Assembly (NCBI GenBank): GCA_002428325.1
Contig: DIVR01000077.1
Location: 1-56,332 of the forward strand
DNA: 56,332 bases
Source: a bacterium UBP4_UBA6127
Lineage (GTDB): Bacteria; UBP4; UBA4092
Reading direction: 5' to 3'
Of the stretch, positions 1 through 15,940 are shown one piece after another. How positions within the stretch are numbered: position 1 is the stretch's first letter; each line of letters starts with the position of its first letter. Position numbers and translations under genes: made by a program. The notes beneath the pieces are model-generated. The model saw only the letters and a program-made list of their open reading frames with translations. It was not told the origin of the DNA and made no database searches.

Positions 1-354
1 GCTCTGGGAATGACTGGGGAGGAAAGTGTAGTTCCATTATTAATGAACTGCACAAAATCTAATAACGAAATGACAAAAACCGCGGCTATTATCGCTTTAA
101 CAGAGAGATTTTGCGATTATCAATCTATTACACAAAAGAATATTCTTAAAACATTAATTTCTTTATCAGATGATAGTTCCTCCCAGGTGAGACAAGCTGT
201 TGCACAATCTTTGGGTAAATCAAAAGATAAGGAAGCTATTCCATATCTGGAAAAGATGTTGGAGGATTCCTATAGAATAAAACAATCACATGGTGATTAT
301 TATTATCCTGTAAGGGATATGGCACAGCATTCCTTAAGAGAAATCAGCCGATAA
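1..354 (+). CDS. HEAT-repeat (PBS-lyase-like) protein, copy A, 5'-truncated by window edge
   Basis: Frame 1 is open from nt 1 and stops with TAA at 352-354. The product is about 80% identical to the C-terminus of the 1223-2107 product. Nucleotides 1-~110 are identical to 1756-~1865. HEAT-like repeats of the form VRxxAAxALG...AIPxLxxML. Confidence 0.7.
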   Translation, partial: ALGMTGEESVVPLLMNCTKSNNEMTKTAAIIALTERFCDYQSITQKNILKTLISLSDDSSSQVRQAVAQSLGKSKDKEAIPYLEKMLEDSYRIKQSHGDYYYPVRDMAQHSLREISR

Positions 355-386
355 TGAGACTAATAATATATAAAATCAGCAGGATA

Positions 387-893
387 ATGACTTATTTCAT
401 TATCCTGCTGATTCTGGCTGGATTAGTTTTGATAGGGTTTTTATACCCTTATTATGTGAAATGGGAAGTAAAAGAGCGATCAAAGCCAGTTTATCATAGA
501 GCCAGGGAGGATGCTGTTCCTGAGATTGATATGCATCCTAAGTTCCGTGAAGATAATTTCTATAAAGGTAATTTAAGTTATAAAAAACCTTCAATTATAA
601 ACCAATTGTCTCCATCTTCTACTATCTTTATCCATAGTATCAGTTGGAATAAAACAACATCAGGGTATATTCATACTGTTGGAACGATGTACTATACTCC
701 AATTAGAGTCCGTGCTGAAAGAGTACATAAAACATTTATTGGATTAAGTTCATCTGATGTATATTCTACAATAGCGATTAGTAGCTCTTATTTATCACGA
801 TTTACCATTCAAACAGCTGAGTTCCATCCTCCTCTGGTTTTATCTGAAGGAACCAAGTTTAGTTTAAACTTTGATGAATGTTATTATAAATGA
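387..893 (+). CDS. small single-pass membrane protein, cassette copy A (unknown family)
   Basis: The ORF runs 354-893. The preferred start is ATG at 387 in the context caggataATG, the same context as copy B at 2137. It has an N-terminal TM helix. Motifs conserved with copy B: SSTIFIH, SGYIHTVG, YTPIxVRAERVH and FHPPLVLS. Confidence 0.6.
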   Translation: MTYFIILLILAGLVLIGFLYPYYVKWEVKERSKPVYHRAREDAVPEIDMHPKFREDNFYKGNLSYKKPSIINQLSPSSTIFIHSISWNKTTSGYIHTVGTMYYTPIRVRAERVHKTFIGLSSSDVYSTIAISSSYLSRFTIQTAEFHPPLVLSEGTKFSLNFDECYYK

Positions 894-939
894 ATAATAC
901 AAATATGATATTTTTAAAGCAAAAAATTAGTTGATTTAA

Positions 940-1140
940 TTATCCTGCTAATTTTAGCCAGATTAGTCTTACAAGTATTGTGTAAAAGAAGAGATAAAAC
1001 AGCAATCAAAACTAATATAATGAGGAGCTGGTTCCAGAAGTTGATATTCACCCGACACTTTTCATCGAAGATTTTTATGACCCTGAAGGACCCTACGCTG
1101 AAAAATATAAATCTAAAATTGAATATATTAAGAATCTAAA
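940..1140 (+). pseudogene. degenerate relic of the small membrane-protein gene (third cassette copy)
   Basis: DNA homology to copies A and B: attatcctgctaattttagccagattagt resembles attatcctgctgattctggctggattagt, and ...gaggagctggttccagaagttgatattcac...atcgaagatttttatga resembles EDLVPEIDRH..IEDFYEG of copy B. There is no continuous frame, and indels and a truncation are present. Confidence 0.55.
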
Positions 1141-1222
1141 ATAAAAAAGGTTATTTAACATACTGTTACCTGTGTCGCTGGGAATGCATATCATAGTGAG
1201 GATTGTCGATGAGGAAAATAAT

Positions 1223-2107
1223 ATGAGATTGTTTACTTTTGCAGGTGTTATGGTTTTGATTTTAAGTAGTTCGTTTGTTATGGCTCAACCCTATGATCTT
1301 GACAGCTTAACTGACCCCCTTAGCCCGAAATCATCCGAATATTTTAATATATTGCAAAAAAAGAAAGACCCAGCACTAACTAATGCCCTGTTATCTAAAA
1401 TGACTACTTCCAAAAATACGCAAGTACGAATACATTGTGCCAGAATCCTACTGGCAGCGGATAATACTCCTACGTTAAGGAAAAGTTATCTAGATGCCTT
1501 TAAATATGAGAAAGAAACCAGGGCAAAGACAATGCTGGCAATGACTATAGGCCATAGAAGAATTACCGAAGCTTTACCAGAATTGAAGAAATATGTACTA
1601 TCTGAAGGTAACAATGATTATATGATGTTTGAATCTAAAGGTGTTTGTATTCAGTCTCTGGGACAATTAGGCAAGGTCAGCACGCCGGTGCTAACTTCTT
1701 TTGCCGCAAATACCCAATTAATGAATTTGTATTCTACTCATATCATGTATGCTCTGGGAATGACTGGGGAGGAAAGTGTAGTTCCATTATTAATGAACTG
1801 CACAAAATCTAATAACGAAATGACAAAAACCGCGGCTATTATCGCTTTAACAGAGAGATTTTCTAATTATTCGCCCGCCACTCAAAAGAGTATTCTCAAC
1901 ACTTTAATTTTATTATCAGAAGATAGTTCTGCTCAGGTGAGGCAATCTGTTGCGCAATCATTGGGTCAATCTAAGGCAAAAGGAGCTATTCCCTATCTGG
2001 AAAAGATGTTGGAGGATTCCTATAGAATAAAACAATCACATGGAGATTATTATTATCCTGTCAGGGATATGGCAAAAAATGCATTGATAGAGATTAACAG
2101 ATTATAA
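1223..2107 (+). CDS. HEAT-repeat protein, copy B, secreted (signal peptide MRLFTFAGVMVLILSSSFVMAQ)
   Basis: The ORF runs 1172-2107. The preferred start is ATG at 1223, 8 nt after GAGGA at 1211-1215. It has a signal peptide and multiple HEAT-like repeats. Confidence 0.7.
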   Translation: MRLFTFAGVMVLILSSSFVMAQPYDLDSLTDPLSPKSSEYFNILQKKKDPALTNALLSKMTTSKNTQVRIHCARILLAADNTPTLRKSYLDAFKYEKETRAKTMLAMTIGHRRITEALPELKKYVLSEGNNDYMMFESKGVCIQSLGQLGKVSTPVLTSFAANTQLMNLYSTHIMYALGMTGEESVVPLLMNCTKSNNEMTKTAAIIALTERFSNYSPATQKSILNTLILLSEDSSAQVRQSVAQSLGQSKAKGAIPYLEKMLEDSYRIKQSHGDYYYPVRDMAKNALIEINRL

Positions 2108-2136
2108 AAACATTAATAACAAAAGTTAACAGGATA

Positions 2137-2643
2137 ATGATTTATATCATTATCCTGTTAACTTTTGCAGGGTTTATCTCTATAGCGTTTATCTATCCGT
2201 TATATGTGAAATGGGAGATAAAGCAACGCTCAATACCTATTATTTATGAGGCCAGAGAGGATTTGGTTCCAGAGATAGATAGACACACAAAACTATGCAT
2301 CGAAGATTTTTATGAAGGAGCCATGAGTTATAAAAACACAACTATTATTAATCAATTAACCCCATCATCAACTATTTTCATCCATAATATCAGCTGGGAT
2401 ACTACTTCTTCGGGATATATCCATACGGTGGGGAATATGCTTTATACACCGATTAAAGTTCGAGCTGAAAGAGTTCATGAAACTGGAATAATTTTCTCCT
2501 CTTCAGGAAAAAGTATAATGATTTCAATTGATAGTGTAGGTTTATCAAAATATACCGTTCATACAGCAACCTTTCATCCCCCTCTTGTTTTAAGCGATGC
2601 AACTACTTTTAGTTTGAGCTTATTTGAGTGTTATTTTAAGTGA
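2137..2643 (+). CDS. small single-pass membrane protein, cassette copy B
   Basis: About 55% identical to the 387-893 product. N-terminal TM helix. Start context caggataATG. Confidence 0.65.
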   Translation: MIYIIILLTFAGFISIAFIYPLYVKWEIKQRSIPIIYEAREDLVPEIDRHTKLCIEDFYEGAMSYKNTTIINQLTPSSTIFIHNISWDTTSSGYIHTVGNMLYTPIKVRAERVHETGIIFSSSGKSIMISIDSVGLSKYTVHTATFHPPLVLSDATTFSLSLFECYFK

Positions 2644-3022: not shown

Positions 3023-3628
3023 ATGGGTTTTGAAAAAACCGAGCGGACAGATGAGGATTTAATGAAGTCTTATCTGGCAGGAGATCTGGATGCTTTTGAG
3101 CATCTGGCTCTCCGCTATGAGAAACTGTTGGTCAATTATGCCTATTCATTTCTTCGCCGCCAATCCGTAAGCGAAGATATCGTACAGGATGTCTTTATGA
3201 AACTGGTGGAAAATAAAAAGAATTATGATACCAACCGGCCTTTTCGGCCCTGGATTTATCGGATTGCCCGAAACCGGATTTATGATGAACTGCGGAAAAT
3301 CCGCCGCTGGAATATATTTCATTTCCGGACAGATACCGAACCGGAAGCTCCTCAGCAAATCGGGGAAATACCGGACCCTCTCGGCTCACCCAGGGAGACT
3401 CTAAATCAGAGTGAGCTATGTGCCAGCCTTCAAAAAGGCCTTGGGAAACTGGATACCCGGTCCCGGGACTTGCTGGTCCTAAGATATTTACAGAGGCTCC
3501 CGGTCCGGGAGGTCTCAGAAATCATGGGAATCCCCGAAGGAACCGTTCATTCGGGTACCCATCGGGCTTTAAAATTACTGGAAAAGATATTAAACCAATA
3601 TGGAATCACTGGGGAGGACCTGCCATGA
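3023..3628 (+). CDS. ECF-type RNA polymerase sigma-70 factor
   Basis: The ORF 2858-3628 is over-extended. The real start is ATG at 3023, after AAGAGGA at 3011-3017. Region 2-like segment DIVQDVFMKL..RPFRPWIYRIARNRIYD. Region 4 helix-turn-helix LPVREVSEIMGIPEGTVHSGTHRALKLL. Confidence 0.8.
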   Translation: MGFEKTERTDEDLMKSYLAGDLDAFEHLALRYEKLLVNYAYSFLRRQSVSEDIVQDVFMKLVENKKNYDTNRPFRPWIYRIARNRIYDELRKIRRWNIFHFRTDTEPEAPQQIGEIPDPLGSPRETLNQSELCASLQKGLGKLDTRSRDLLVLRYLQRLPVREVSEIMGIPEGTVHSGTHRALKLLEKILNQYGITGEDLP

Positions 3629-4407
3629 CTGATAATACGGATAAACTGGCTACCCTTTTATCCCAAGTTACCTCCCGGGAAACTTCGCCTGAATTCCATA
3701 CCCGGTTAATGAAGAAAATTCATCAAGCCGAAAGCCTGGCAACCCTCGGTACTACCCTGGGAGCTGTCTATCTGGAACCCAAAAAAACCTCTGAACCTCG
3801 GATGGCCCAATCAGGCGAAGCATTATTCGCAGGAGACCGGATCCTGACCCGGAAGACGGGTAAAACCTATATCCTCTTCAAAGATGGGACTCAATTATGG
3901 TTAAATCAGGAATCGACTCTGGTCATTGGGGATACCCCTCGGCAACACCAGCTTCCCTTGGGGGAATTACTGGCTTTTGTTACCCGGGCTAAAACCCGTA
4001 AAGACCGGTTTATCCTGAAAACCCCCTCGGCTTTGGTGGAAGTATTAGGCACCGAATTTGATATTGCCATCACCACTGACCAGTCCAGTCTGCTGACAGT
4101 CCTCAGGGGGAGAGTCCAATTCCAGAATGACAAAGGGAGTTTACGGCTGAAATCCAAGTACCAATCCACGGCTAAACCTTCCCAAAAACCTTCCAGGCCC
4201 CAAAAGGTAAAGACTCTGGAGAAAATCCAATGGACTCAAGACTTAGCCCTCCAGGCTGCTAAAGAAGAAAATAATACCCTGCCGGAGACCCTGACCCAAC
4301 CCGAAAGGTTTAATAACACCTTCTCTCCGGGTAAGACCCTTCTAATCCTGGCATTCACCGGAATCTTGGGTTATCTCCTGGGGTACCTTTATGGAATGTG
4401 GCAATAA
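3625..4407 (+). CDS. FecR-domain anti-sigma factor with C-terminal TM anchor
   Basis: ATGA overlap with the sigma factor stop codon, suggesting translational coupling. FecR-like beta-sandwich segment GDRILTRKTGKTYILFKDGTQLWLNQESTLVIG...VEVLGTEFDI. The single TM helix LLILAFTGILGYLLGYLYGMW sits at the extreme C-terminus. Confidence 0.6.
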   Translation: MTDNTDKLATLLSQVTSRETSPEFHTRLMKKIHQAESLATLGTTLGAVYLEPKKTSEPRMAQSGEALFAGDRILTRKTGKTYILFKDGTQLWLNQESTLVIGDTPRQHQLPLGELLAFVTRAKTRKDRFILKTPSALVEVLGTEFDIAITTDQSSLLTVLRGRVQFQNDKGSLRLKSKYQSTAKPSQKPSRPQKVKTLEKIQWTQDLALQAAKEENNTLPETLTQPERFNNTFSPGKTLLILAFTGILGYLLGYLYGMWQ

Positions 4408-4430
4408 TCAACCTGGTTTTCTGTTCGAAT

Positions 4431-4496
4431 AAACGGGGTGAGACCCAGGCTGATGGTTACAGCCTGGGTCCCCCCGGCAAAATAAAATAAACCTAA
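4431..4496 (+). other. conserved hairpin-containing non-coding element, copy 1
   Basis: aaacgg ggtgaGACCCAGGCTgatggttacAGCCTGGGTCcccccggcaaaataaaataaa. It has a 10-bp perfect stem at 4442-4470. It is near-identical to the element at 25581-25660. Confidence 0.6.
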
Positions 4497-4512
4497 AAGG
4501 AGAAGGAATAAG

Positions 4513-5040
4513 ATGAGATACTCGAAATTTGTAGTTCTGGTCGGTGCTTTGGCAACCTTTGGCATGTGCTTCTACCTGGGATATCAACAGGTTCTGGCAG
4601 TCCGGAAAGACCCTGGAAAGAATCCAGCCGCTCAATCAGCCAACCTCGCATCCAAACCTTCAAAAGATATTTATGAGATTGCGCTGACATTACGGCTCAA
4701 ACCCGATAAGGAAATCCTGGTAGGAACCCTTCCTGAAAAGGGAATTTCTATCTATCTTCTCACCCATGTCCTGCCTGAATCCAATCCTAAGACTGTTGAG
4801 TTAAACTACCAGCTGAGAAGCAAGGACGGCAAAACCGTTCTCTCAGCTCCCAAGATTAAAACCTTCCTGGATTCAGAATGCCGCTTAGAAAACCGTTATC
4901 CGGACTCGCCGTCATCTAAGTCCCCCTCTTATTACCAGATAACTTCATTGGTCACCCAAGCTCCAAACAATACCTATCAGGCCAAAATCCATATTGTAAT
5001 GAGTAATGTTGCCATGGACACATCCTCTCAGCCAAAATAG
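4513..5040 (+). CDS. hypothetical N-terminally anchored or secreted protein, likely ECF-sigma target
   Basis: ORF with RBS aaaggagaagg. N-terminal hydrophobic segment FVVLVGALATFGMCFYLGY. Confidence 0.45.
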   Translation: MRYSKFVVLVGALATFGMCFYLGYQQVLAVRKDPGKNPAAQSANLASKPSKDIYEIALTLRLKPDKEILVGTLPEKGISIYLLTHVLPESNPKTVELNYQLRSKDGKTVLSAPKIKTFLDSECRLENRYPDSPSSKSPSYYQITSLVTQAPNNTYQAKIHIVMSNVAMDTSSQPK

Positions 5041-5102
5041 GAAATGGGTCATAAAAAGGAGTCCTCTCCGTACCCCCACCGTCTCCTTACCGCCGTGATT
5101 AT

Positions 5103-5130
5103 TTGACAACTGTCAAAAAAATCGTATAAT
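5103..5130 (+). promoter_or_regulatory. near-consensus sigma70 promoter (TTGACA, 16-nt spacer, TATAAT) overlapped by palindrome copy b
   Basis: -35 TTGACA at 5103-5108 and -10 TATAAT at 5125-5130. The palindrome TTTGACAaCTGTCAAA at 5102-5117 covers the -35 hexamer and the spacer. Confidence 0.6.
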
Positions 5131-5256
5131 GAGGAATAGTAGGGATGTATTCAGTTAACCCGGCCAGATAACAGTTCAAGCTGACCAATCCCGATCACTG
5201 GCCGTTGTGGAAAACTGAGGAGACGGTGGGGGTCTCCTTACCTAAGGGGGGTTCTT

Positions 5257-5382
5257 ATGAAGGGCCCCAAACCTATCAGGGATTTCACGTTGGTAGAATT
5301 ACTGATGGTCGTATCTATAATAGCAATCCTGGCAGCCATCACCCTCTCCCTGATATCCGGTGAAATAACCAGCTTTCGGTAA
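5257..5382 (+). CDS. 41-aa type IV pilin/pseudopilin N-terminal stub, possible pseudogene
   Basis: MKGPKPIRDFTLVELLMVVSIIAILAAITLSLISGEITSFR*. It has a class III signal-like N-terminus but D rather than G at the -1 position. There is no globular domain. It is not in the ORF track because it is shorter than 60 aa. It is preceded by the G-rich sequence aaggggggtt. Confidence 0.35.
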   Translation: MKGPKPIRDFTLVELLMVVSIIAILAAITLSLISGEITSFR

Positions 5383-5483
5383 AAACCAGCCAGGTAAGTA
5401 CCAGGATGAAAAACTCCATCGCTTTTTCAGAAGGTAGGGGGATATATGCTCATCCTTTTCTTTTTATAAACCCGCCCCTTGCC

Positions 5484-6755
5484 TTAAAACAAGGTTTTTA
5501 GAAGATGAAGCATCTTGTTATATAGCAGGCCCCGATTTTCCTTCCATAGATATTCAGGGCTGGTTTTGGCATCCCCCATTTTCCATTGATAGAAATATCT
5601 CTCATTATTCCAGTTGATGGAATAATAGACATATTGGGAATCGGGAGAAAATCTATGAAATTCAAGGAATTGGGAATCCGCCGGAAGCGGAATCTGAAGA
5701 TTTGATTTTTCGGTCAAGTCAGCGACAAACCCGGGAGAGACGTAAACATATCGGCCGTTCCTGGATAGTTCAAAATACTCAGGAGAAGATGAGACATCTT
5801 TTTCCCCTTTTTTTAAAGAGATTATATCGTCAGGTTTATTCAAGGCAGCATCCCATTGTCTCAGCAGATAATGGTCCTGGGTCTCCGTATTTTCTTTGAT
5901 TTCCCACCAAACCGGTTTGTTCAGCCAGGACTGCCTGATTATCACTGGAATAAAATCATATTTAGCCCAGGCAGCCTGAAGGTTTCTCATGGGGAAGCTC
6001 TCCAGCCGTTTCCCTTCATAATCAATTTTCAGAGTTGTCTGGATTTTTAAAAGTTCATCTCCCTCCGGCCAGGAGAAAGGGTCATACCCAGGAGAAGCCG
6101 AATCTATTGCCAGAGCCAGGATTTCCCGGGAATTCCTCAAACCAACCGATACATAATCAGGGTGGGATTGGATAGTATAAGGTTGAATAAATCCTGTTGT
6201 CCCGGACAGGAAGGTCTTTTTCCCATCCAGAGGATTCAAGGCATAAAGAGAGCCTGGATATTTTATGGAAAAGGTCCGGTTAAAAACTTTGAATCTCTCA
6301 AAAGAAGCATCTTCGGGAGGAATCGTAATCAATAAGGGTTTATTGGGGTCGATTTGAGAAAAGACCAGGACTTTATCAGACCGGGCAGGCCACCAGGCTT
6401 GATGATAGAGTTTAGTTTTCCAAAGAGACTTGTTGAAATGGCCGGTCGAATCATACAAAACAGTTTCATAATTCCGAAGTTTGAACCGGTAATAAGGGGA
6501 AAGAATTGAATCAGCGACTCCCTGGGGATACGCTTCAATATCCCGATAAGTCGCCAGGACCCAATGATGGTCCGGAGAATAATCAGCCGTAATCAATTGT
6601 CTGCCAGCCGGGGGGGGGATCCTCTGAATCATCCCATCCTCGCTAATGAGGACTATTTCATTCCCCTTCTGCCAGACAATGCCGCACACACCCTGATAAG
6701 GCAGGCAAGCCATCAGGCCGGCTGCTAATACCATGAGAAATAAAAATCTTCTCAT
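5484..6755 (-). CDS. hypothetical secreted protein (signal peptide; beta-propeller-like)
   Basis: 423-aa ORF. N-terminus MRRFLFLMVLAAGLMA. Rich in W, Y and D, resembling beta-propeller proteins. Confidence 0.45.
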   Translation of the reverse strand: MRRFLFLMVLAAGLMACLPYQGVCGIVWQKGNEIVLISEDGMIQRIPPPAGRQLITADYSPDHHWVLATYRDIEAYPQGVADSILSPYYRFKLRNYETVLYDSTGHFNKSLWKTKLYHQAWWPARSDKVLVFSQIDPNKPLLITIPPEDASFERFKVFNRTFSIKYPGSLYALNPLDGKKTFLSGTTGFIQPYTIQSHPDYVSVGLRNSREILALAIDSASPGYDPFSWPEGDELLKIQTTLKIDYEGKRLESFPMRNLQAAWAKYDFIPVIIRQSWLNKPVWWEIKENTETQDHYLLRQWDAALNKPDDIISLKKGEKDVSSSPEYFELSRNGRYVYVSPGFVADLTEKSNLQIPLPADSQFLEFHRFSPDSQYVYYSINWNNERYFYQWKMGDAKTSPEYLWKENRGLLYNKMLHLLKTLF

Positions 6756-6900
6756 AACCCTCCTCTTTCGTCTCCCTCAAGACTTAAAAACCTTTCGGTT
6801 TATAAGGAGTTATTTCTTTAATACTTTCTCTACAACTATTAAACTACTGTAACAGACATATCAACTCGCTAACATATAACATAATTAACTTTTATCAGTT

Positions 6901-8217
6901 CTATTTTTGCTTCCAATCAACCGTTTGGCAGGAATTCGGCAAGACCTGCAAGGTAGTGGATATAATATATGGTTTTTTAATAATTTTCAACTCATGGGTC
7001 CCTTCCAGGATATGGGACACGGAAGGTTTTTTTTGGTATCCATCCAGTAATATCAAGGCATCAGAAGGGATTTCTTCCAAGACAATCCGCCCCTCTCCCC
7101 GATGGAATAACTGGCTGTTTTGAATAATATACCTTCCGGTGAAGAATAAAGATATCAATATCATCAATACGGACGGGATGGAGGCATGAGGAATTTTCAT
7201 CAGCCAGTATCCTGCCAAGAGAGTGGCGGGAAATCCATAAAGGGCAAAAACAGTCCAGACCTGAGGATTGTTATCAGGATAATGGGTCAACATCAACCCC
7301 AGGGTTCCCAGGGTTGCCAACAATAGAAGGGGTACTTCCACAGGATTCCAGGCCTTTTGCCCATGGACCAGAGGAAGCAGCAGTAACAGGGGAATGGAAA
7401 AAAGGGAAATCCGGTATTGGAAATAAAGGATATTCCGCCAATAGGCCTTTCCCAAATAGGTATAATCCTCAGGCCTTCCCGGCTGGGGATGGAAACTCAT
7501 CCAATGGATATTCTCAAAGAAATCTCCTGAACCCCAGTTGAGCCAGGTAATTCCCACCATCAGAACAGCCAGAGGAATCAATCCCCACAGCCAGGTTTTT
7601 ATTTCATCCGTATGATGGCCCTTCAACCACCAGGCAAGGACCAGCACCGGAAAGTAAAACCCTACCTGCAGATGGCACCAGGCAGCCAGGCTGTAAGCCA
7701 AAGCCGGAGCCAGAGGAGAGTATTTCCCCTCACAATACCCAAACAGGTAATAAAAAAACATGGCGCTGGCCGCAATCACCAGGGCATAGGTTTCCAGAAA
7801 TCCATAAAATAGAACCGTGAACCCGGAACTCATAACCAAGCCAAAAGGGATCCACCCTTTGACTCCCCACCGTTCGCAGATTCGATAGAGGTAATACACA
7901 AAGATACTGCCTGCCAGACAGGCCACAAAATGCATGGCATATCGGCCATCCCAGCCCAGGAGATAACCGCCCGTCTTGTAACTCAGTTGATATAGAAAAA
8001 AGGAAAGCATCCTTCTTTTTCGAAACCAGACATCTCCCTCGACTTCTCTCAACCAGAGGTCAGCACTGCCTTCCCCTAATTGCACTGAACGGAAAAACCA
8101 GAAAACCAGGAAAAACACCCCGGACAGCAGCCAAGGTAAATATATTTCAATCCTGGAATTTCCAGAAAATGAAGAGAATTGAGATTGTTTCGGCAATCGG
8201 CTCATAGTCGGCAACAT
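6901..8217 (-). CDS. polytopic integral membrane protein, possibly GT-C-fold glycosyltransferase (DUF2723/PMT-like)
   Basis: 438 aa with at least 10 predicted TM helices. Acidic first-loop motif REVEGD. The family assignment is tentative. Confidence 0.3.
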   Translation of the reverse strand: MLPTMSRLPKQSQFSSFSGNSRIEIYLPWLLSGVFFLVFWFFRSVQLGEGSADLWLREVEGDVWFRKRRMLSFFLYQLSYKTGGYLLGWDGRYAMHFVACLAGSIFVYYLYRICERWGVKGWIPFGLVMSSGFTVLFYGFLETYALVIAASAMFFYYLFGYCEGKYSPLAPALAYSLAAWCHLQVGFYFPVLVLAWWLKGHHTDEIKTWLWGLIPLAVLMVGITWLNWGSGDFFENIHWMSFHPQPGRPEDYTYLGKAYWRNILYFQYRISLFSIPLLLLLPLVHGQKAWNPVEVPLLLLATLGTLGLMLTHYPDNNPQVWTVFALYGFPATLLAGYWLMKIPHASIPSVLMILISLFFTGRYIIQNSQLFHRGEGRIVLEEIPSDALILLDGYQKKPSVSHILEGTHELKIIKKPYIISTTLQVLPNSCQTVDWKQK

Positions 8218-8261
8218 ATTACCACACCCAACCGGATTTTTTCGACCCTCTTCTTGTCAAT

Positions 8262-8296
8262 AAAAAACCCGGATAAGAAATACTCTCATCCGGGTG
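8262..8296 (-). terminator. rho-independent terminator after pilQ
   Basis: Minus-strand RNA is cccggaugagaguauuucuuauccggguuuuuuua: a 7-bp stem followed by a U-tract. A TTGACA hexamer follows it on the minus strand. Confidence 0.6.
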
Positions 8297-8320
8297 GGTT
8301 AGCTCCTATTCAGAAAAAAT

Positions 8321-10303
8321 CTATTTCTTCATATCCGCCTCAGTGGGGGGAAGCACTAAATCATTCTTGGTTTTGGGAACCTGGATATTGCCGGAAGTCT
8401 TTTTCGGACTGGCAGAAATGGGCCGGGCTGTGGTATCCACACTTTCGATAACACCTGTCGGCCGGATATTTTCAGGGTTGGCATTTTCCACGGCATCCTC
8501 TTGTTTTGCCTTTTCTTCCATCAACATATCTACCAGTTCTTTTTTATTTTTTTTCTGGACCGAATCCGTGGTGGCATTACTGAGAGCTTTATAGAAATCA
8601 GGATAAAGCTGTTCAGATTCAATCCGTTTTCCGGTAACCATGTGGGGCGTCAGGAACAAAATCAAGTTTCGTTTATTATTGGATTTTGACCGGCTGCCAA
8701 AAAGGAGATGTCCGATAAAAGGAATATCTTCCAAAAGAGGAATCCCGGAACCGGATTCGGTTTTGTTTTTGGTCACCAAACCACCGATGACCACTGTCTC
8801 GTGGTTATGGACCTGGATATAAGTGCTGGCTTTGGCAGTAGTCGTCTTTACCCCGGAAAACTGGTTGCCAGTCCCTTCATTTAAGGTAACCGGGTCAGCG
8901 CTGGTATTCTCCAAAGATACTTTCATATCAATAACCCCATCGACATTGATGTGGGGTTTAACGGTCAGTTTCAACCCATATTCCTGGGAAGTCTGAGAAT
9001 AGTATTGCTGCTGATAACTCGAGCCTGACGCACTGGTAACCGGTTGAGTGTATAAGGTACTGTAAGGTTGGGTACCACCGATGGAGATCTGCCCTTCCTC
9101 ATCATTTTTTACCATGATTCGCGGACTGGCCAATAATTCAGTATTCGCTCCTAATTTACTGGCAGCCTTGGCCGTAGCACTAAAGTTTAAACTAAGCATT
9201 GAAGTCGAAGAATTGAAATAATCTCTAACTCCTTGTTGGAAATTATTTTTAAAAATATCGATGACAGCAGTGCTGGAAATGGAATACCCGGCGCCATAAG
9301 ACCAATCAATACCAAGGTCCAGGGATTTCTGGTAATCCATATCGACAATTTCAGCCTCGATATAAACCAACCGGTCAGGCTGGTCGAGGGCTTCAATGAA
9401 ACTCCGAATTTTGTCCATATGGCTGGGAATATCATCCACAATCACCCGGCTGTTTCGTTCATCAATCTTAATAATCCCTTTTTTGGTAACAATATCTTTG
9501 ATGGCCGCTTCAATATCCTTCGGTTTGGCATATTTCACTTCAAAGACTTCCAGTTGGGTTTCCACATCCAGGGATTCCACCAGCTTAGCGATTTTTTCAA
9601 CGGCGGAAGGGACATCCGTTACAATCAGGGAATTGGTCCGTTCATCGACCTGAATATCCCCTTTAGCAGTTTTAAGTTTATCCGCCTGGGTTTTGATATC
9701 CGAAGCAATGGCATATTTTATCGGGAAGATTTCAACTTCAATCAATACATCCAAAGTCTGGACAATCTGTTCAATCCGGGAAACGGATTCTGGAGTATCG
9801 GTTACCTGCAGGAGGTTGGTACGGTCATCCCGGATGATTTTTCCAGCTGTGGTCAGCATGGGGGTAATGGCGTTTTGCACATCCTGGGCATTGGTGTTGA
9901 GAATATAGAAGGATTTGGTAATGACCTGATCTTTCATATATTCATCATATTCAGCCTTGGTCATAATGGTGATGGTGTTTTCCACTCGAACCCAGACCCA
10001 TCCATTGGATTTGGTAATACTGTCCAGGGCTTGTTCCAGATTGGAATTATTCAGGGAAATATTGATATTCCCCGTGGCTCCTTTACTGGCAACCACTCCC
10101 ACCCCAAAGGTATCCCCCAATAGAGATAATACCTGGTTCAGGGGAGTATCGGTCAGGGACCCGGTAAAAGTCTTCTCCCCACCGGCCTGAGCATAAGCGG
10201 GAAAACTCCCGAAATTACTCAAGCAGAGCATGCTGGCAATTAATAATGCCATGAAAAGCCATTGGGCTGTTCCGGCCATAGTCAGTCTTTTAAATATTTT
10301 CAT
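8321..10303 (-). CDS. pilQ: type IV pilus / type II secretion secretin (PilQ/GspD family)
   Basis: 660 aa with a signal peptide, repeated N-domains and a C-terminal secretin domain ...GGLVTKNKTESGSGIPLLEDIPFIGHLLFGSRSKSNNKRNLILFLTPHMV. Confidence 0.85.
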   Translation of the reverse strand: MKIFKRLTMAGTAQWLFMALLIASMLCLSNFGSFPAYAQAGGEKTFTGSLTDTPLNQVLSLLGDTFGVGVVASKGATGNINISLNNSNLEQALDSITKSNGWVWVRVENTITIMTKAEYDEYMKDQVITKSFYILNTNAQDVQNAITPMLTTAGKIIRDDRTNLLQVTDTPESVSRIEQIVQTLDVLIEVEIFPIKYAIASDIKTQADKLKTAKGDIQVDERTNSLIVTDVPSAVEKIAKLVESLDVETQLEVFEVKYAKPKDIEAAIKDIVTKKGIIKIDERNSRVIVDDIPSHMDKIRSFIEALDQPDRLVYIEAEIVDMDYQKSLDLGIDWSYGAGYSISSTAVIDIFKNNFQQGVRDYFNSSTSMLSLNFSATAKAASKLGANTELLASPRIMVKNDEEGQISIGGTQPYSTLYTQPVTSASGSSYQQQYYSQTSQEYGLKLTVKPHINVDGVIDMKVSLENTSADPVTLNEGTGNQFSGVKTTTAKASTYIQVHNHETVVIGGLVTKNKTESGSGIPLLEDIPFIGHLLFGSRSKSNNKRNLILFLTPHMVTGKRIESEQLYPDFYKALSNATTDSVQKKNKKELVDMLMEEKAKQEDAVENANPENIRPTGVIESVDTTARPISASPKKTSGNIQVPKTKNDLVLPPTEADMKK

Positions 10304-10389
10304 TGAAAGAAACCTCCGTCCCGGGCAATCAATCTATCATAGGACCTGTAACATGTAATTTAGCAGTTTCATGGCTGGGATGATCCTTT

Positions 10390-11163
10390 CTAAGGAGTCA
10401 TCTCCATACTCATGGTGCCATATTCAAATACTACTTTATTTTGTAAAACCTGTTTCACGATGACATGCTGAAGGATATCGCCTTCTTTAACTTTATTATT
10501 TTTACCGTCACCGGTCAGGATAAAAGCTGTTTTTAAAGCCGGGATAGAACCTTTCAGTTTCCAGCCCCGGGTCAGTTCTTCAATCGGTTTCAGGGAGAAC
10601 CATTTAGATTCATCCGGATTATTTGCCAAAGCGACCTGAACTCGGTTCTGCATGGGTTCCACTGTTATTAGTTTCACTCCATCCAATACTTCCCCTACCC
10701 GAAGGTTATGGGAAAGAGCCCGGGTGTCCTGAACAATACATTCATCTTTGCCGATAATCTCCCATATCAGCCAATTCCGAGTCCGAACTTCAACCGTTTC
10801 ACGCGGCGGAGGAGGCGGCGGGGGAGGCGCAATCAACAGCCTGAACATATCCCGGCTGCCAATCCCTTTATAGGTTTCACCGCTGGCCAGGAAAGCTGTA
10901 GTATCAGAAGAAAATTGATGAAATTCATAAGGGGACTCATCTGCTACCATCGGTTTGGAAGCGGTCATGATCCCCAGGGGAATCCCGGTGGTGCTTTTCC
11001 CCAGCAAAGAAGCCGTATCCGCAGCCAGAGTCGCCGCAGTAACAGTCTTTTTGCGTTTTTTAGGTTTAATATCGCCGGAAGGGGTCGGCCAAAAATAATA
11101 ACCAGCCACTACCAATATAGCCACCAGGGCAAGGATTATGGTTGTCAGACGGTATTTCATCAT
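10390..11163 (-). CDS. PilP-like inner-membrane pilus assembly protein (TM helix, Pro8 linker, C-terminal beta domain)
   Basis: N-terminal TM helix, an eight-proline linker, then a beta-rich C-terminal domain. It sits between pilO and pilQ. Confidence 0.45.
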   Translation of the reverse strand: MMKYRLTTIILALVAILVVAGYYFWPTPSGDIKPKKRKKTVTAATLAADTASLLGKSTTGIPLGIMTASKPMVADESPYEFHQFSSDTTAFLASGETYKGIGSRDMFRLLIAPPPPPPPPRETVEVRTRNWLIWEIIGKDECIVQDTRALSHNLRVGEVLDGVKLITVEPMQNRVQVALANNPDESKWFSLKPIEELTRGWKLKGSIPALKTAFILTGDGKNNKVKEGDILQHVIVKQVLQNKVVFEYGTMSMEMTP

Positions 11164-11187
11164 CTTAGGTTATCCTGCCGAGGAGCC

Positions 11188-11763
11188 CTATTGGGGACCT
11201 CCGGCCTCCTCTTCTTTAGAAATGACTTTCCCGATTCGCAGGGTTGTCTGCAATATCGGATTTTGGGCTGATTTGGCTTTAGGGGTAATCTGAAGATATT
11301 CGATATAAAGGCCCCGTTCAACCATCCCCTGAAGGAATCGGCCCACAGTGGCTAAATTTCCCTCAAAGACTACTTGAATGGTATAGACCTGATAATCAGA
11401 CCGGGAGACTTTCCGTTTCCGGACAGGGTCCATTCGGTTGAACCGGACACCGGTTTCCCTCTGTAATTCATCGGTCTGCAACAGCAGAGTGTCTTCGGCC
11501 CGTTTCTGGGGGTCTTTCAATCGGATGATTTTCTGGTATTGTTCATAATCGGCCAGAATCTTTGATTCATTTTTCAGGAGCTGATTCACTTTTTTCAATT
11601 CAGCCTGTTTATTTGCAAGCCGGGTGGAGGTCCTGCTCCATTCATCCACCAGGGGATAAATAATCCAGTTAAACAGCAAAGCGCCGGCAATCACCGCGCA
11701 GGTTGCAAAAAAGATGGTTTTTTCCCGCCGGGTCTTAAAGAGTTTATCGAGGGATGAAATCAT
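11188..11763 (-). CDS. pilO: type IV pilus assembly protein PilO-like
   Basis: 191 aa with an N-terminal TM helix, coiled coil and C-terminal domain. Its start overlaps the pilMN stop at 11763. Confidence 0.6.
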   Translation of the reverse strand: MISSLDKLFKTRREKTIFFATCAVIAGALLFNWIIYPLVDEWSRTSTRLANKQAELKKVNQLLKNESKILADYEQYQKIIRLKDPQKRAEDTLLLQTDELQRETGVRFNRMDPVRKRKVSRSDYQVYTIQVVFEGNLATVGRFLQGMVERGLYIEYLQITPKAKSAQNPILQTTLRIGKVISKEEEAGGPQ

Positions 11764-13391
11764 TATTCTCTCCCCTCTTGGTTTTCGGCAGTACCGGTCT
11801 GGTCATCTTTCGCCGGTTTGATTTTACAAACCACATTAAATCGGACTACCTGCTTGGTTTCCATGGTATCGGTATTGGCATTCTGGATTTCTACCAGGGA
11901 GAAATGCCCGAGTTTTTCAACTTCAAACCGGAAATTAACGGCATCTTCCATACTCATGGCGACAGCGGTCAAAGTCAGGACCCGGTTACGTTCATAAACT
12001 ACTTTTTCCAGAGCCACCTGGCCGGGGATTAATTCACAATCCGTCAATCCGCTAAGGGTTTCCACACTGACATCGGTTTGAGAGACCATCTTCCGGATGG
12101 ATTCCAGCTGTTTCTGCATTTCCGCCAGTTTCTCGGTTTTAGGTTTTTTCATAACCAGGTCCCGGGATATCTTATTGATTTCATCCTGCATCCCGGCATA
12201 TTGCTGGTAGCCATAGACTCCGGCAGCAATAAAAAGAGCCGCCACCCCGATCCCAATTTGCCCAAAGAACCATTGGCGTTTCCGTTGAATCCGTTTTCTC
12301 AGGATTTCCGGGGGAAGCAGATTAACCGCCTCACCTCGGTCGGCATCCATCGCCCTTAAGGCAAGCCCGAAAGCTGTATTTAATTCAGGAAGAAGCTCAA
12401 CCGAGCCTCCACTATGTTCGGAAGTCACATAACTCACCGGTTTAACCGGTATCCCTAATTCTTTTTCCAGGTAATCTTTCAGGGTCGGAATCCGGGAAAG
12501 TCCACCGCTGAGGACAATCGAATCGATATGGCTGATACCGAATTCGTTAGAGAAATAATCAATCGACCGTTTAATTTCATTATCGACCCGTTCCTGCCAA
12601 CTGGCAACGGTATCCCGGAGGGTCTCTTTTTCATATGTACCCAACCCATAATCAGGTTGAGTAAAATCCATTTTCAGCAACATCTGCCGGGATTCTTCCT
12701 CAGAGACATTTAATCCTCTCTGGAAAGCCCTCATCAGCTGGGACCCCCCAATCGGGGTGGCACGGGTATATTTCAAAGCCTGGTTCTGCACCAGGAAAAG
12801 TTCCATGGAAGTGAATCCAAAATCCATTAACAGGAAGGTTTTATTGGGTTCTTTGAAAGCCGCCGAACGGGCCACTTTCAAACCCCGCATCAGGGCAAGA
12901 GCGCTGGAATCAATAGCATAAGGTTCCAGGTGCAAAGCTCTCAGCAGGTTTAACTGCTCTTCCACCGCATCCCGCCGGCAGACAGCCATCAGGACTTCGG
13001 ACCCGCCCAAATGGCTGGACCCGATCAATTCAAAATCAACAATATCTTCATCGGTATAGAAGGGCACATACTTAGCCGCTTCGAACCGGATCATCTGTTC
13101 TACTTCAGAAATGGAATTGGTAGGAAGTTTGATATAGCGGACGACAGCCGCCTGCTTGGAAACAGAAGTTACCAGGTGGGCGGGATGAATCTTCATCTCC
13201 GCCAGAAGCTTCTTAATCGCTTCAGCAGTCGGAGTTTTCTCCGGAGACGAAAAATCCACCACACCGACGGGAGCCTGAATCTCTATCATTCCCTGCGAAA
13301 TGATTTTGTAAGAATCTCCACGCCCGCGGCGTATCTGGACCAGCTTTACGCTGTCCGATCCAATATCTAATCCTGTAACAATAGGGGCCAT
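11763..13391 (-). CDS. PilM-PilN fusion protein (actin-like ATPase-fold PilM, then TM and PilN domain)
   Basis: N-terminus MAPIVTGLDIGSDSVKLVQI is PilM/FtsA-like. A central TM helix FFGQIGIGVAALFIAAGVYGY follows. The C-terminal half is PilN-like. Confidence 0.75.
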   Translation of the reverse strand: MAPIVTGLDIGSDSVKLVQIRRGRGDSYKIISQGMIEIQAPVGVVDFSSPEKTPTAEAIKKLLAEMKIHPAHLVTSVSKQAAVVRYIKLPTNSISEVEQMIRFEAAKYVPFYTDEDIVDFELIGSSHLGGSEVLMAVCRRDAVEEQLNLLRALHLEPYAIDSSALALMRGLKVARSAAFKEPNKTFLLMDFGFTSMELFLVQNQALKYTRATPIGGSQLMRAFQRGLNVSEEESRQMLLKMDFTQPDYGLGTYEKETLRDTVASWQERVDNEIKRSIDYFSNEFGISHIDSIVLSGGLSRIPTLKDYLEKELGIPVKPVSYVTSEHSGGSVELLPELNTAFGLALRAMDADRGEAVNLLPPEILRKRIQRKRQWFFGQIGIGVAALFIAAGVYGYQQYAGMQDEINKISRDLVMKKPKTEKLAEMQKQLESIRKMVSQTDVSVETLSGLTDCELIPGQVALEKVVYERNRVLTLTAVAMSMEDAVNFRFEVEKLGHFSLVEIQNANTDTMETKQVVRFNVVCKIKPAKDDQTGTAENQEGRE

Positions 13392-13558
13392 AAGCAGTTT
13401 TTAGTCTATTTTCCTAACTCATCTCAATAATTTGATTAAGAGGTAACATTATAACCTTATTTCCCTCTTTTTTCGATAAGCCCGGTTGCCAGAGGGAGAA
13501 GCTTAGCCGGTAATTTATCTATACTATCTCTTTATATAAAAGGACTACACAGCCTTGG

Positions 13559-14677
13559 TTAGAATTCCTGCCATTTCAAAATTTGGACTCGAACCCCTTC
13601 TTTAGCTCCCTTGAACTGGTTTTCCATCATTTCCATTTCCTCAGAGGTTAAGAGGGTAACGACCCATTCTCTCTTCACCAGGGCTTCCACCGTTGTTTTA
13701 GCTTTACCAATCTGGCCGGTACTCTGAATCCTGAATAAGTTGGAATCGGTACGAACTGTTCTAGAAAGCCGGGCTCCCAGCAAAGGATTTATCGGACCCA
13801 GTTCAGTTGCCACTTCTCCGGCATTGGTAAAAGGCTTATCATCCGAGGTCCCGGGTTCTCCATCCGACCCTAAAATCCTATCATTCAGGTTTTGAGCAAT
13901 GGAGATAGCATTTTCCACATCTTCATCAACCATACTTAAAATCATGGCTGTTAAGACTGGCAGTGGGGCCGTATTCACGTTTGTCATACCATCGCCTTCA
14001 ACAGTCAACAGGTCTATCAGGGAGACTTTCAAATCGGGATTACCATAAATACCCCGAGGCTCATAAAGCATTTCCGGCTTAAATCCCGGAACATTCAACA
14101 GTTCCACCGGGCTAACAAAGTCTTCATTCTTGAAATGTTCCTTGGCAAGCGTGGTATCTTTAGAACCGTAATAGAACTCCTCTTCGGTATAGGATGAATC
14201 TTGATTATAGTCACTGTCACCATCCCGATAATCGACGATGGCTGTGGCAAAATACTTAGCGTCATCCTCTTTATAGTCCAAGGCTTGGAATAAACCCTCA
14301 AACATTTTAACGGTAGCCTTGTTAATATTCATTTTACCCAGTTCATCCTGGATAACCACCGTATAAGTACCTTCCCCCAGGGGAATATCCTTATAGATTT
14401 TCTCGGTTTCCTCATTATTGGCCCAACAATCTCCAGGAGCGTCATAGATGGCATTCCGGGTTCGATGGTCTAAAATGGCATCATTCTTTAATTCCACCAA
14501 AGTACGTATCACACCGGCCCTTGCCAGGTAATAGGCTTGATGGGTATCCAATTGAGTCCTCGACATCCGGGCTTCTAATTGGAGTTCAATGGAGAAACCC
14601 AAGGCAATGACCGATAGAATCATCAATATCCAGAGGGTGGTTATCAGGATAACTCCCTGTTCTTTACCCAGCCTCAT
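13559..14677 (-). CDS. gspK: minor pseudopilin GspK-like
   Basis: 372 aa. N-terminus GVILITTLWILMILSVIALGFSIELQLEARM is typical of GspK. Confidence 0.7.
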   Translation of the reverse strand: MRLGKEQGVILITTLWILMILSVIALGFSIELQLEARMSRTQLDTHQAYYLARAGVIRTLVELKNDAILDHRTRNAIYDAPGDCWANNEETEKIYKDIPLGEGTYTVVIQDELGKMNINKATVKMFEGLFQALDYKEDDAKYFATAIVDYRDGDSDYNQDSSYTEEEFYYGSKDTTLAKEHFKNEDFVSPVELLNVPGFKPEMLYEPRGIYGNPDLKVSLIDLLTVEGDGMTNVNTAPLPVLTAMILSMVDEDVENAISIAQNLNDRILGSDGEPGTSDDKPFTNAGEVATELGPINPLLGARLSRTVRTDSNLFRIQSTGQIGKAKTTVEALVKREWVVTLLTSEEMEMMENQFKGAKEGVRVQILKWQEF

Positions 14678-15498
14678 TCGTTGGTTGCCTCTTTTACAAT
14701 GCTGGGCTTCGTGGAAGGAATCTCACAAAACCAGTCAAATTCTTCCCCTTCAGCTTTGGGGTTATCCGGGATTTCCAAGGTCATTTTGATGCGGACAGCA
14801 TCCGGCAAGTTATCAGGATACACACGGATGGCATCTTTCCGCTCCGGATCAAAAAGGGAGTCTTCCTCCTCAGCATCCTTGGGAGTCCGGTTGTCATCCA
14901 GCCGGGAATCCCATTTAGCAGCCCAAAACAGCTGCCCTGCTTTCTTATAGCCATAACTCAGCTCACAGGACTTGATGCCATGAACCAGGTCCTCATCCTC
15001 GGCAATGGTGCCTGTTTGTTCATCCACTTTCCGGTTTAACTTCTTATCTTCATAAGTATAAGTTATTTTAAAGATTCCCTGCCGTAGGACTTTCAACTTT
15101 CCCAGGGGAACGGACCCATAACTATAAAAAGTCATGGTGGTGGCATTCCCTACAAAATCATATTCAGCCTGAGAATAAGTAGTTTCATCCTGAATCCAGC
15201 TGGTATCTGTAGAATAATCAATATTTTGGGTGGTGTCCTTTTGGTAAGGTGCAATATCATAAGAAGTCTCATCAATCCCCAAGACACTTCTTAGGTCCCG
15301 CATTGTGATAGAGTGGAGGATTCGGGCCTCCTGAGAGAGTTCCCGCTGGCTGGTGCCTGCCTTATAAAGACCCAAAGCTGTCCTAAAGGTGCTGTAAACC
15401 GCCCCCATTATTAAGGTAAACAAAACAGCGGCAATCAATACTTCCAGAAGGGTAAAACCACTTTGGGCGGTTGAGGACTGTCGCCTGTTAATCCACAT
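14674..15498 (-). CDS. gspJ: minor pseudopilin GspJ-like (prepilin N-terminus GFTLLEVLIAAVLF)
   Basis: Prepilin-type N-terminal methylation motif. 4-nt overlap with gspK. Confidence 0.65.
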   Translation of the reverse strand: MWINRRQSSTAQSGFTLLEVLIAAVLFTLIMGAVYSTFRTALGLYKAGTSQRELSQEARILHSITMRDLRSVLGIDETSYDIAPYQKDTTQNIDYSTDTSWIQDETTYSQAEYDFVGNATTMTFYSYGSVPLGKLKVLRQGIFKITYTYEDKKLNRKVDEQTGTIAEDEDLVHGIKSCELSYGYKKAGQLFWAAKWDSRLDDNRTPKDAEEEDSLFDPERKDAIRVYPDNLPDAVRIKMTLEIPDNPKAEGEEFDWFCEIPSTKPSIVKEATNE

Positions 15499-15940
15499 AG
15501 GTAAGCCTCGAAGTCTCGTAGGTCACCAAGGTGATAGGGGTGATTGTCTGTCCTTTTTCCTCATAACTGACCGTCAGGGTGATTGTTTCGAATTTTTCCG
15601 GCTCCATGAGGATAGAGGAATCATCTATCAGGTATTCGGAAGATTCTTCTTCAACATCATAATCCCATTTAATATCAGGGTACTTATCCCCAAAATCCCC
15701 CCGGTCGCCCTCTTTCCGGTCTTCCTCAGGGGTATTCATAATCTCAAACATTTTCTGCTGGGCCAAGGTCAAGGCTAGTTGGTATTTCTGGCTGGTTTTG
15801 ATGATCTTGGTCGAGGTGGAAAAGGCCCCCAATACAGCCATCAGCCCCACCGTCATTACCATGACCGAGACCAATACTTCCAAAAGCATGAACCCTTTGG
15901 GGTTTTGATTATTAAGTATGAAGGATTTCATTGGATTCAA
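15488..15940 (-). CDS. minor pseudopilin GspI/GspH-like (KGFMLLEVLVSVMVM)
   Basis: Prepilin-type N-terminus. Overlaps the gspJ start. First gene of the operon. Confidence 0.6.
   Translation of the reverse strand: MNPMKSFILNNQNPKGFMLLEVLVSVMVMTVGLMAVLGAFSTSTKIIKTSQKYQLALTLAQQKMFEIMNTPEEDRKEGDRGDFGDKYPDIKWDYDVEEESSEYLIDDSSILMEPEKFETITLTVSYEEKGQTITPITLVTYETSRLTYVD

Follow-up and report, generated by a model that had tools for sequence, protein, structure and literature searches.

Positions 1 to 2,643 of contig DIVR01000077.1 (assembly GCA_002428325.1, forward strand; 56,332 nt, the whole of which we call the window) carry a short tandem array of a two-gene cassette, in which a gene for a HEAT-repeat protein is followed by a gene for a single-pass membrane protein. 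We interpret this locus as a lineage-restricted, duplicated and eroding two-gene operon that encodes coupled envelope proteins, and we put the probability of this account as a whole at roughly 55%. Its evolutionary part is very likely correct: an orphan operon, probably acquired, underwent an ancient tandem duplication, after which came pseudogenization, reduction of one copy to a relic, unit loss and bidirectional gene conversion. Its functional part, in which an exported α-solenoid adaptor and a translationally coupled membrane partner would form an envelope complex, is less likely than not and is offered tentatively.

The 116-kb contig from ENA (L001) is identical to the window over 12,643 shared nt and adds 7,864 nt on the upstream side. 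The first HEAT copy (HEAT-A), which is cut by the window edge, begins 330 nt upstream of it (L001 7534). The two units, A and B, lie in register with an offset of exactly 1750 nt and are 77% identical over 1,089 nt aligned without gaps. Their 5' ends form a 96% repeat (L001 7534–7667 and 9016–9149), so that the upstream region, Shine-Dalgarno sequence and signal peptide of HEAT-A match those of HEAT-B at this level. HEAT-A carries a 268-nt frameshifting deletion after the signal peptide. All that is left of it is a stub of 48 codons and a C-terminal frame that lacks a start codon, and it is therefore a pseudogene; the surviving fragment is 84% identical to residues 177–293 of HEAT-B in a tblastn comparison. 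The ends of the deletion (L001 7664–7668 and 9146–9418) share a GGC microhomology, with ATGGC followed by T at one end and TAGGC followed by C at the other, which suggests slippage or illegitimate recombination.

Between the units lies a relic of a third membrane-gene copy, recovered by tblastn (E = 7e-4). Its positions 931–969 are 72–77% identical to the start of the membrane genes and positions 1022–1080 are 80% identical to 2257–2315, with a frameshift between these two homologous pieces and a stop codon at 1142–1144. The relic retains a remnant of the outer hairpin described below, part of the coding sequence for the transmembrane helix and the EELVPEVDIHP..EDFY segment, and it is also present in two other contigs, L005 and L007. 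Nothing further upstream of HEAT-A is homologous to the cassette and no other copy was found in the 64 kb available, so the array consists of two units and the relic. The first-pass annotation of this DNA, made from the letters of the window, had described a two-gene cassette in a tandem array that is decaying, with a frameshifted third membrane-gene copy. Its open reading frame (ORF) map agrees with the ORF list at every gene, and the decay is evident in the HEAT-A pseudogene, in the relic and in the loss of a unit from some strains; the repeat structure stands as well, although the array is small.

Comparison of the two units reveals gene conversion, as the same annotation had proposed. The longest exact run spans 112 nt (1–112 and 1751–1862); in 3,000 shuffles of the match/mismatch string, the longest run averaged 23 nt and never exceeded 61. 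The annotation had recognized this identity at coordinates that slip by 4–5 nt in the second copy (1 to about 110 and 1756 to about 1865), as it had a second exact block (247–293 and 1993–2039; the correct limits are listed in Table 1). The exact run belongs to a longer tract in which the only mismatches are at 1686, 1691 and 1750 and whose unit-A partner is cut by the window edge, extending 110 nt beyond it. The number of synonymous substitutions per synonymous site (dS) between HEAT-A and HEAT-B is 0.06 over the 76 codons of the tract, versus 0.49 before and 0.82 after it.

Conversion can also be seen directly between strains. An independent JGI assembly of 53.5 kb (L002) differs from L001 at 3 sites in 4,124 nt aligned, and all three are the tract positions 1686, 1691 and 1750 in HEAT-B, where L002 carries the base of copy A each time. 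Three random single-nucleotide polymorphisms (SNPs) would all agree with the paralogue with a probability of about 1e-5. We painted all available units as A-type or B-type at 275 informative sites. All B units outside the window lineage are A-type over ~1960–2215, which covers the 3' end of the HEAT gene, the intergenic hairpin and the membrane helix, and three of them are A-type already from ~1876. Conversely, the A units of a second lineage (lineage 2) are B-type over ~1597–1960. Within the tract, six substitutions are common to the A and B units of lineage 2 and missing from both units of the window lineage, a pattern that reads as a signature of concerted evolution. Gene conversion at this locus is recurrent, recent and bidirectional.

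Ectopic gene conversion between bacterial paralogues is known from tufA and tufB. As in that pair, the diverged duplicates of the cassette show patchy tracts of identity, paralogues within a genome are closer to each other than orthologues are between genomes, and a further likeness to such exchange is that a defective copy takes part in it. The cassette differs in that conversion is visible at the scale of populations, two strains being told apart by three conversion SNPs and nothing else, and in that it accompanies the loss of array members rather than the upkeep of two essential copies.

The strains vary in their complement of units. The metagenome-assembled genome (MAG) GCA_002382585.1 (L007) has the same HEAT-A deletion and the relic and lacks the RDD gene and orf144; its lineage, shared with L005, is ~6% diverged from that of the window. 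L094, a 14.7-kb Logan contig (SRR33693428) that runs from rpoB to FecR, carries a single unit, whose 293-aa HEAT gene is intact. The 1,734 nt that correspond to L001 7257–8990 (unit A and most of the relic) are missing from this contig, and its junction (L094 7934–8104) joins non-repeated sequence at a TAA microhomology; in addition, the RDD gene is missing and orf111 is disrupted. Loss of a unit in L094 is more parsimonious than gain elsewhere because the split between A and B is ancient. The first-pass annotation had regarded a single-copy array in the same lineage as counting against its reading, and this is partly the case, since at least one strain, L094, has one unit. In a further contig (L092, 1–560), the sigma-adjacent membrane gene is fully A-type and is joined to the downstream flank of B, the result of either a long conversion or an unequal crossing-over that collapsed the array.

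The divergence between the copies dates the duplication. The membrane genes A and B differ as paralogues at a proportion of synonymous sites (pS) of 0.71 and at 0.28 nonsynonymous substitutions per site (dN), with a dN/dS ratio (omega) of ~0.12. Synonymous sites are thus saturated between the copies, compared with a dS of ~0.15 between strains, and the duplication therefore long predates the divergence of the strains. Among orthologues, in a lineage diverged by ~6–10%, the omega of membrane A is 0.26–0.31 (0.26 against L007, P = 9e-4 against neutrality), that of membrane B is 0.19 against the L004 orthologue and that of the N-terminal half of HEAT-B is 0.22. The departures from neutrality are all significant, with P between 5e-12 and 9e-4. 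In the exchanged region of the HEAT gene, omega is 0.09–0.26. By these substitution patterns, membrane A, membrane B and HEAT-B are real, constrained genes under purifying selection. The description of the gene pairs as diversifying, in the first-pass annotation, is not borne out, given omega values of 0.12–0.31 in paralogues and orthologues alike.

HEAT-B exceeds the gathering cut-offs of four Pfam models (HEAT_2, 55.0 bits against 27.7; HEAT, 37.3 against 23.5; HEAT_EZ, 33.2 against 27; HEAT_PBS, 28.9 against 20.9) and starts with a Sec-type signal peptide, read directly off the sequence (MRLFTFAGVMVLILSSSFVMA, followed by QP). The protein is probably exported by Sec and likely periplasmic, in line with the secreted HEAT-repeat protein first proposed for this gene. 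Its AlphaFold2 (AF2) model is an all-α solenoid of ~16 helices, predicted with moderate confidence (mean predicted local distance difference test, pLDDT, of 67). The best PDB sequence matches are alphaRep proteins, and the Foldseek neighbours comprise alphaRep (template modelling score, TM, of 0.61), designed armadillo proteins, PP2A and Escherichia coli YibA. HEAT-B stays below the NCBIfam equivalog cut-offs for NblB (38.7 of 300 bits), PRK09687 (YibA; 25.7 of 275), CpcE (16.3 of 330) and also CpeY, and it has no relative beyond its own lineage in a database of 5.8 billion clusters. By its Pfam scores and α-solenoid model, HEAT-B belongs to the HEAT superfamily. It resembles the PBS-lyase-type HEAT-like repeat proteins (HEAT_2 PF13646, HEAT_PBS PF03130; YibA, PDB 1OYZ; alphaRep) in its Pfam matches and its predicted solenoid, and differs from them by its Sec signal peptide, by the membrane-protein gene as partner and by the lack of relatives outside the lineage.

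The membrane protein consists of an N-terminal transmembrane helix, which AF2 predicts confidently, and a ~140-aa domain. The overall pLDDT of the model is 44.7, which makes it unusable as a whole; the helix alone is confident, and the C-terminal domain is built mostly of β-strands at low confidence. Five histidines of the domain are conserved: His50, His83, His96 and His114 across the family, and His147 in all members but the truncated homologue P0004. Also conserved across the family are three motifs that the first-pass annotation had listed, SSTIFIH, SG[YF]IHTVG and YTPI.x.RAERVH, whereas the fourth, FHPPLVLS, is missing from the divergent homologue P0004. The distribution of positive charges gives cues to topology: in the 168-aa forms they lie only C-terminal to the helix, an arrangement that speaks for a C-terminal domain in the cytoplasm, and the 179-aa forms and the L006 protein carry them also before the helix.

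The annotation could assign this domain to no family, and our searches lead to the same result. Nothing significant was found in Pfam, NCBIfam, PHROGs or PADLOC, the best sub-threshold matches being Herpes_ORF11 (E = 0.0098; 15 bits against a cut-off of 27) and phrog_26107 (E = 0.035), and a profile of the family matched no PDB sequence at E ≤ 10. The family amounts to 4 protein clusters in the 5.8-billion database. An exhaustive search of 1.84 billion cluster representatives with a hidden Markov model recovered only the family itself and two spurious proteins. These candidates, P0007 (E = 5e-19) and P0008 (E = 7e-5), were rejected as homologues: they are translations of tandem-repeat DNA, and their scores are inflated because weak matches are summed over 9–11 repeats. 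Profile matches that are spread over several stretches of such translations need cautious reading. The family profile also found no relative among GTDB species representatives, viral contigs and JGI metagenome contigs. The JGI scan missed even L002, L003 and L006, though JGI contigs had been retrieved by exact protein look-up; the GTDB-representative and JGI scan collections thus appear either not to contain the lineage or to mask it, and the lack of relatives there is therefore weaker than it looks. We conclude that the membrane-protein family is a true orphan.

A divergent member of the family stands alone on a 1.3-kb contig from another sample (L006, 171–719). It is 75–83% identical to the cassette genes in its core, has a higher GC content, and encodes a protein with an N-terminal extension and with an unrelated acidic C-terminus in place of FHPPLVLS. 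The 170 nt that precede it contain no HEAT coding sequence. A small HTH_23 gene of the transposase-type helix-turn-helix class lies nearby (L006 1041–1247).

In both units, a hairpin encloses the Shine-Dalgarno sequence and the start codon of the membrane gene. Hairpin B has a predicted stability of −32.6 kcal/mol (z = −9.7), which none of 200 shuffles reached, and hairpin A one of −33.0 kcal/mol (z = −7.7). The two stems share 17 pairs, 3 of which are changed on both sides yet still paired, and these compensatory changes occur although the right arm codes for different amino acids in A and B. Hairpin B begins 12 nt past the stop codon of HEAT-B, a geometry that fits coupling, and in A-type units an in-frame upstream ATG overlaps the HEAT stop codon (TAATG). 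The relic forms no stable hairpin (z = −1.4); the inner stem, the ribosome-binding site and the start codon are all lost. On the plus strand, no U-run follows either hairpin; a terminator-like flag was raised on the minus strand only, where nothing is evidently transcribed. No Rfam family matches within the window.

These features suggest that the hairpin hides the ribosome-binding site of the membrane gene, whose translation would then depend on ribosomes that terminate at the HEAT gene. The presence of AGGA and ATG inside a strong, compensated hairpin just after the HEAT stop codon makes such translational coupling probable. Phage MS2 coat/replicase and hok/mok are the classic cases of translational coupling through an occluding hairpin. 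In the cassette, as predicted from sequence, a stable stem likewise buries the downstream Shine-Dalgarno sequence and AUG near the end of the upstream ORF, and with its stable stem and compensatory pairs the predicted element has the structure of an occluded ribosome-binding-site coupled pair. It differs from both precedents in that its downstream product is a 168-aa bitopic protein rather than a small toxin or a phage protein, and that no antisense RNA partner is known.

The following model explains our data best. The operon encodes a HEAT α-solenoid binding protein, probably exported by Sec, followed by a single-pass membrane protein, whose ~140-aa domain is probably β-rich and studded with histidines. 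After an ancient tandem duplication, HEAT-A was killed by its deletion and one membrane copy was cut down to a 220-nt relic; some strains lost a whole unit, and non-reciprocal recombination copies patches in both directions between the survivors. Ribosomes that finish the HEAT gene would switch on translation of the membrane gene. Such coupling would fix the ratio of the two proteins, which may act jointly as a cell-envelope complex, with the solenoid as its adaptor or binding subunit in the periplasm and the bitopic protein as the solenoid's partner or anchor in the membrane.

Several observations weigh against this model. Membrane A stays under purifying selection beside the dead HEAT-A, L006 is a solo membrane homologue that has an ordinary Shine-Dalgarno sequence and no hairpin, and one strain (L004) has a nonsense codon in HEAT-B; all three weaken the idea of an obligate complex. 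The codon (TAT to TAG, L004 538–540, equivalent to window 1748–1750) falls at one of the three sites at which L001 and L002 differ, and L090, another lineage-2 B unit, is intact; it could be a true inactivation or a sequencing error. The topology cues conflict, and the HEAT and membrane proteins may occupy different compartments. The predicted covariation of the hairpin amounts to a single comparison of an A-type with a B-type stem, since conversion has given the other copies their A-type hairpin. Lastly, several lineage-2 contigs are short and end inside repeats, so that some of the mosaics could be chimeric.

Table 1. Coordinates of the array and of its downstream neighbours in the window
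Feature	Position	Strand	Remarks
HEAT copy A, 3' part, pseudogene	1–354	+	frame open from base 1; HEAT fragment ORF 10–354
Membrane protein A, 168 aa, intact	387–893	+	alternative form of 179 aa from ATG 354 (354–893)
Hairpin A, perfect 17-bp stem (374–390 / 397–413)	374–413	+	encloses AGGA 381–384 and ATG 387
Relic of a third membrane-gene copy	923–1144	+	without Shine-Dalgarno sequence and start codon
5' end of the repeat unit (upstream region, Shine-Dalgarno sequence, HEAT-B signal-peptide codons)	1152–1285	+	96% identity to unit A
HEAT-repeat protein B, 294 aa, intact	1223–2107	+	ATG with GAGGA Shine-Dalgarno sequence; ORF open from GTG 1172
Main gene-conversion tract common to copy A	1640–1862	+	223 nt, 3 mismatches
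Second exact block, 50 nt	1994–2043	+	identical to 244–293; codes for YLEKMLEDSYRIKQSHG
Hairpin B, perfect 22-bp stem (2120–2141 / 2146–2167), 4-nt loop	2120–2167	+	encloses AGGA 2131–2134 and ATG 2137
Membrane protein B, 168 aa, intact	2137–2643	+	62% identity to membrane protein A
ECF (extracytoplasmic function) sigma factor	3023–3628	+	4-nt overlap with FecR (ATGA 3625–3628)
FecR-type protein	3625–4407	+	followed by orf175, a 175-aa single-pass protein of no known family; sigma-FecR-orf175 region 3023–5040
Secretin/PilM cluster	5484–15940	-	downstream flank

The array lies within a ~6-kb islet (L001 ~4600–10700, reaching ~2850 in the window) with a GC content of 26–38%, compared with 45–50% on both sides; at third codon positions (GC3) the islet genes reach 0.20–0.35 and the flanking genes 0.46–0.53. 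From this composition, the two-gene operon was probably acquired horizontally. No mobile-element mark (tRNA gene, integrase or flanking direct repeats) was found around the islet. The islet also holds a gene of the RDD family and, on the minus strand, three small hydrophobic ORFs, which match no family and show no significant similarity to one another. The upstream flank comprises rpoB, a PNPOx-type oxidase and an Endonuclease_1 protein. Downstream, the presence of a secretin indicates that the organism has an outer membrane; the secretin/PilM cluster is adjoined by a small ORF whose N-terminus carries a prepilin-type motif (5257–5382; FTLVELLMVVSIIAILAAI). The best matches of the ECF sigma factor among GTDB species representatives are from Patescibacteria MAGs, at 38–40% identity. 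Farther along the window, a 405-aa protein encoded on the minus strand (40574–41791) has an AAA_16 match and weak BrxC/BrxD-like ATPase matches and is a possible defence-related ATPase. The JGI labels TOLCLC and NAPDCCLC presumably refer to hydrocarbon-degrading cultures.

This setting raises the possibility, in our view a rather unlikely one, that the cassette is an accessory of the adjacent module of ECF sigma factor and FecR-type anti-sigma factor, as an envelope sensor, a modulator or a regulated output. Wherever a contig extends far enough, also in the single-unit strain, the sigma-proximal unit is found ~380 nt before the start of sigma-FecR-orf175 and shares its strand, and no convincing terminator follows membrane B. 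However, the GC3 of the cassette (0.24–0.33) and of the sigma/FecR genes (0.49–0.52) points to different histories, the divergent homologue in L006 is not beside a sigma gene, and no ECF-type promoter motif with canonical spacing can be read by eye upstream of the HEAT genes. Nor is the cassette membrane protein related to orf175 (probability of 0.1% in a profile comparison). A literature search for links between ECF sigma factors and HEAT repeats gave nothing relevant.

Less probable still is that the array is an orphan immunity islet, whose exported HEAT proteins, and perhaps the membrane proteins, neutralize toxins of competitors that act in the periplasm or at the membrane. Imm-HEAT is a recognized immunity class, and its poly-immunity loci are, like the cassette, tandem and partly degenerate HEAT arrays in variable islets (PMC3482391). 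The low-GC islet studied here likewise varies among strains in gene content and copy number, and a YibA-type (PRK09687) HEAT protein lies beside a PAAR-like-domain gene in a putative type VI secretion system (T6SS) immunity islet of Salmonella Paratyphi C (PMC7400221), which also counts for this possibility. The known loci link Imm-HEAT to the toxins Tox-REase-7 and Ntox34 (PMC3482391). By comparison, no toxin, Rhs, PAAR, VgrG, CdiA or secretion-system gene was found in the 20 kb around the array (8 kb upstream and 12 kb downstream) or among the larger ORFs of the window that were scanned. Judging from its name alone, Tox-REase-7 is presumably a nuclease that acts inside the cell, and HEAT-B carries a signal peptide. 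The two units are constrained paralogues rather than a mix of unrelated families, PADLOC returned only a 15-bit HEAT-ARM match, and the YibA, NblB and CpcE scores of HEAT-B are far under the cut-offs. On these counts, the cassette does not group with polymorphic-toxin or T6SS immunity arrays. With no invertase gene in the upstream extension or among the scanned ORFs of the window and no relative of the cassette in viral contigs either, the suggestion of the first-pass annotation that such gene pairs are typical of immunity, effector or phase-variable surface systems finds no support at this locus.

It is highly improbable that the truncated HEAT-A acts as a silent donor which rewrites the C-terminal repeats of HEAT-B and the membrane helix, in the manner of pilS and pilE. 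One intact copy of expressed type does stand beside one 5'-defective copy, at least four distinct conversion mosaics occur among strains that are 90–99.9% identical, and two near-identical strains are separated by three SNPs alone, each of them a conversion into HEAT-B. Yet, unlike pilE/pilS and vlsE, the locus has a single, partial donor copy, exchange runs both ways (the A units of lineage 2 are overwritten by B), the exchanged segments are under purifying selection and not hypervariable, and HEAT-A retains its own promoter-proximal region; it does not fall within that class. No recombinase or specialized initiating sequence was found, and ordinary homologous recombination between 1.75-kb tandem repeats accounts for all observations. 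That HEAT-A is kept as a donor, and that conversion has been selected as a means of varying the C-terminal repeats of an exported binding protein and the helix of its partner within populations, is likewise very unlikely; if true, the locus would be a minimal one-donor analogue of pilE/pilS-type variation acting on an orphan envelope complex.

That the repeat pattern is an artefact of collapsed or chimeric metagenome contigs, as the contigs of L004, L005, L007 and L090 that end inside repeats and the short k-mers with which Logan contigs are built might suggest, can be dismissed with near certainty: the arrangement of the window was assembled independently in the ENA and JGI contigs with only the three differences noted above, no exact repeat in it exceeds 112 nt, which is below the k of 141 that the ENA contig's name implies and makes the assembly path unambiguous for the window lineage, and the single-unit junction of L094 joins sequences that share no repeat in L001.

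The account of a duplicated, eroding operon thus leaves current understanding as it stands, and the locus is a worked example of a familiar type of event, not a system of a new kind. It shows the erosion of an array by deletion, pseudogenization and unit loss alongside gene conversion, visible between strains that are three bases apart. It also flags an orphan membrane domain together with a well-supported hairpin over the ribosome-binding site of its gene, and in this respect serves as a pointer to what may be an orphan envelope module.

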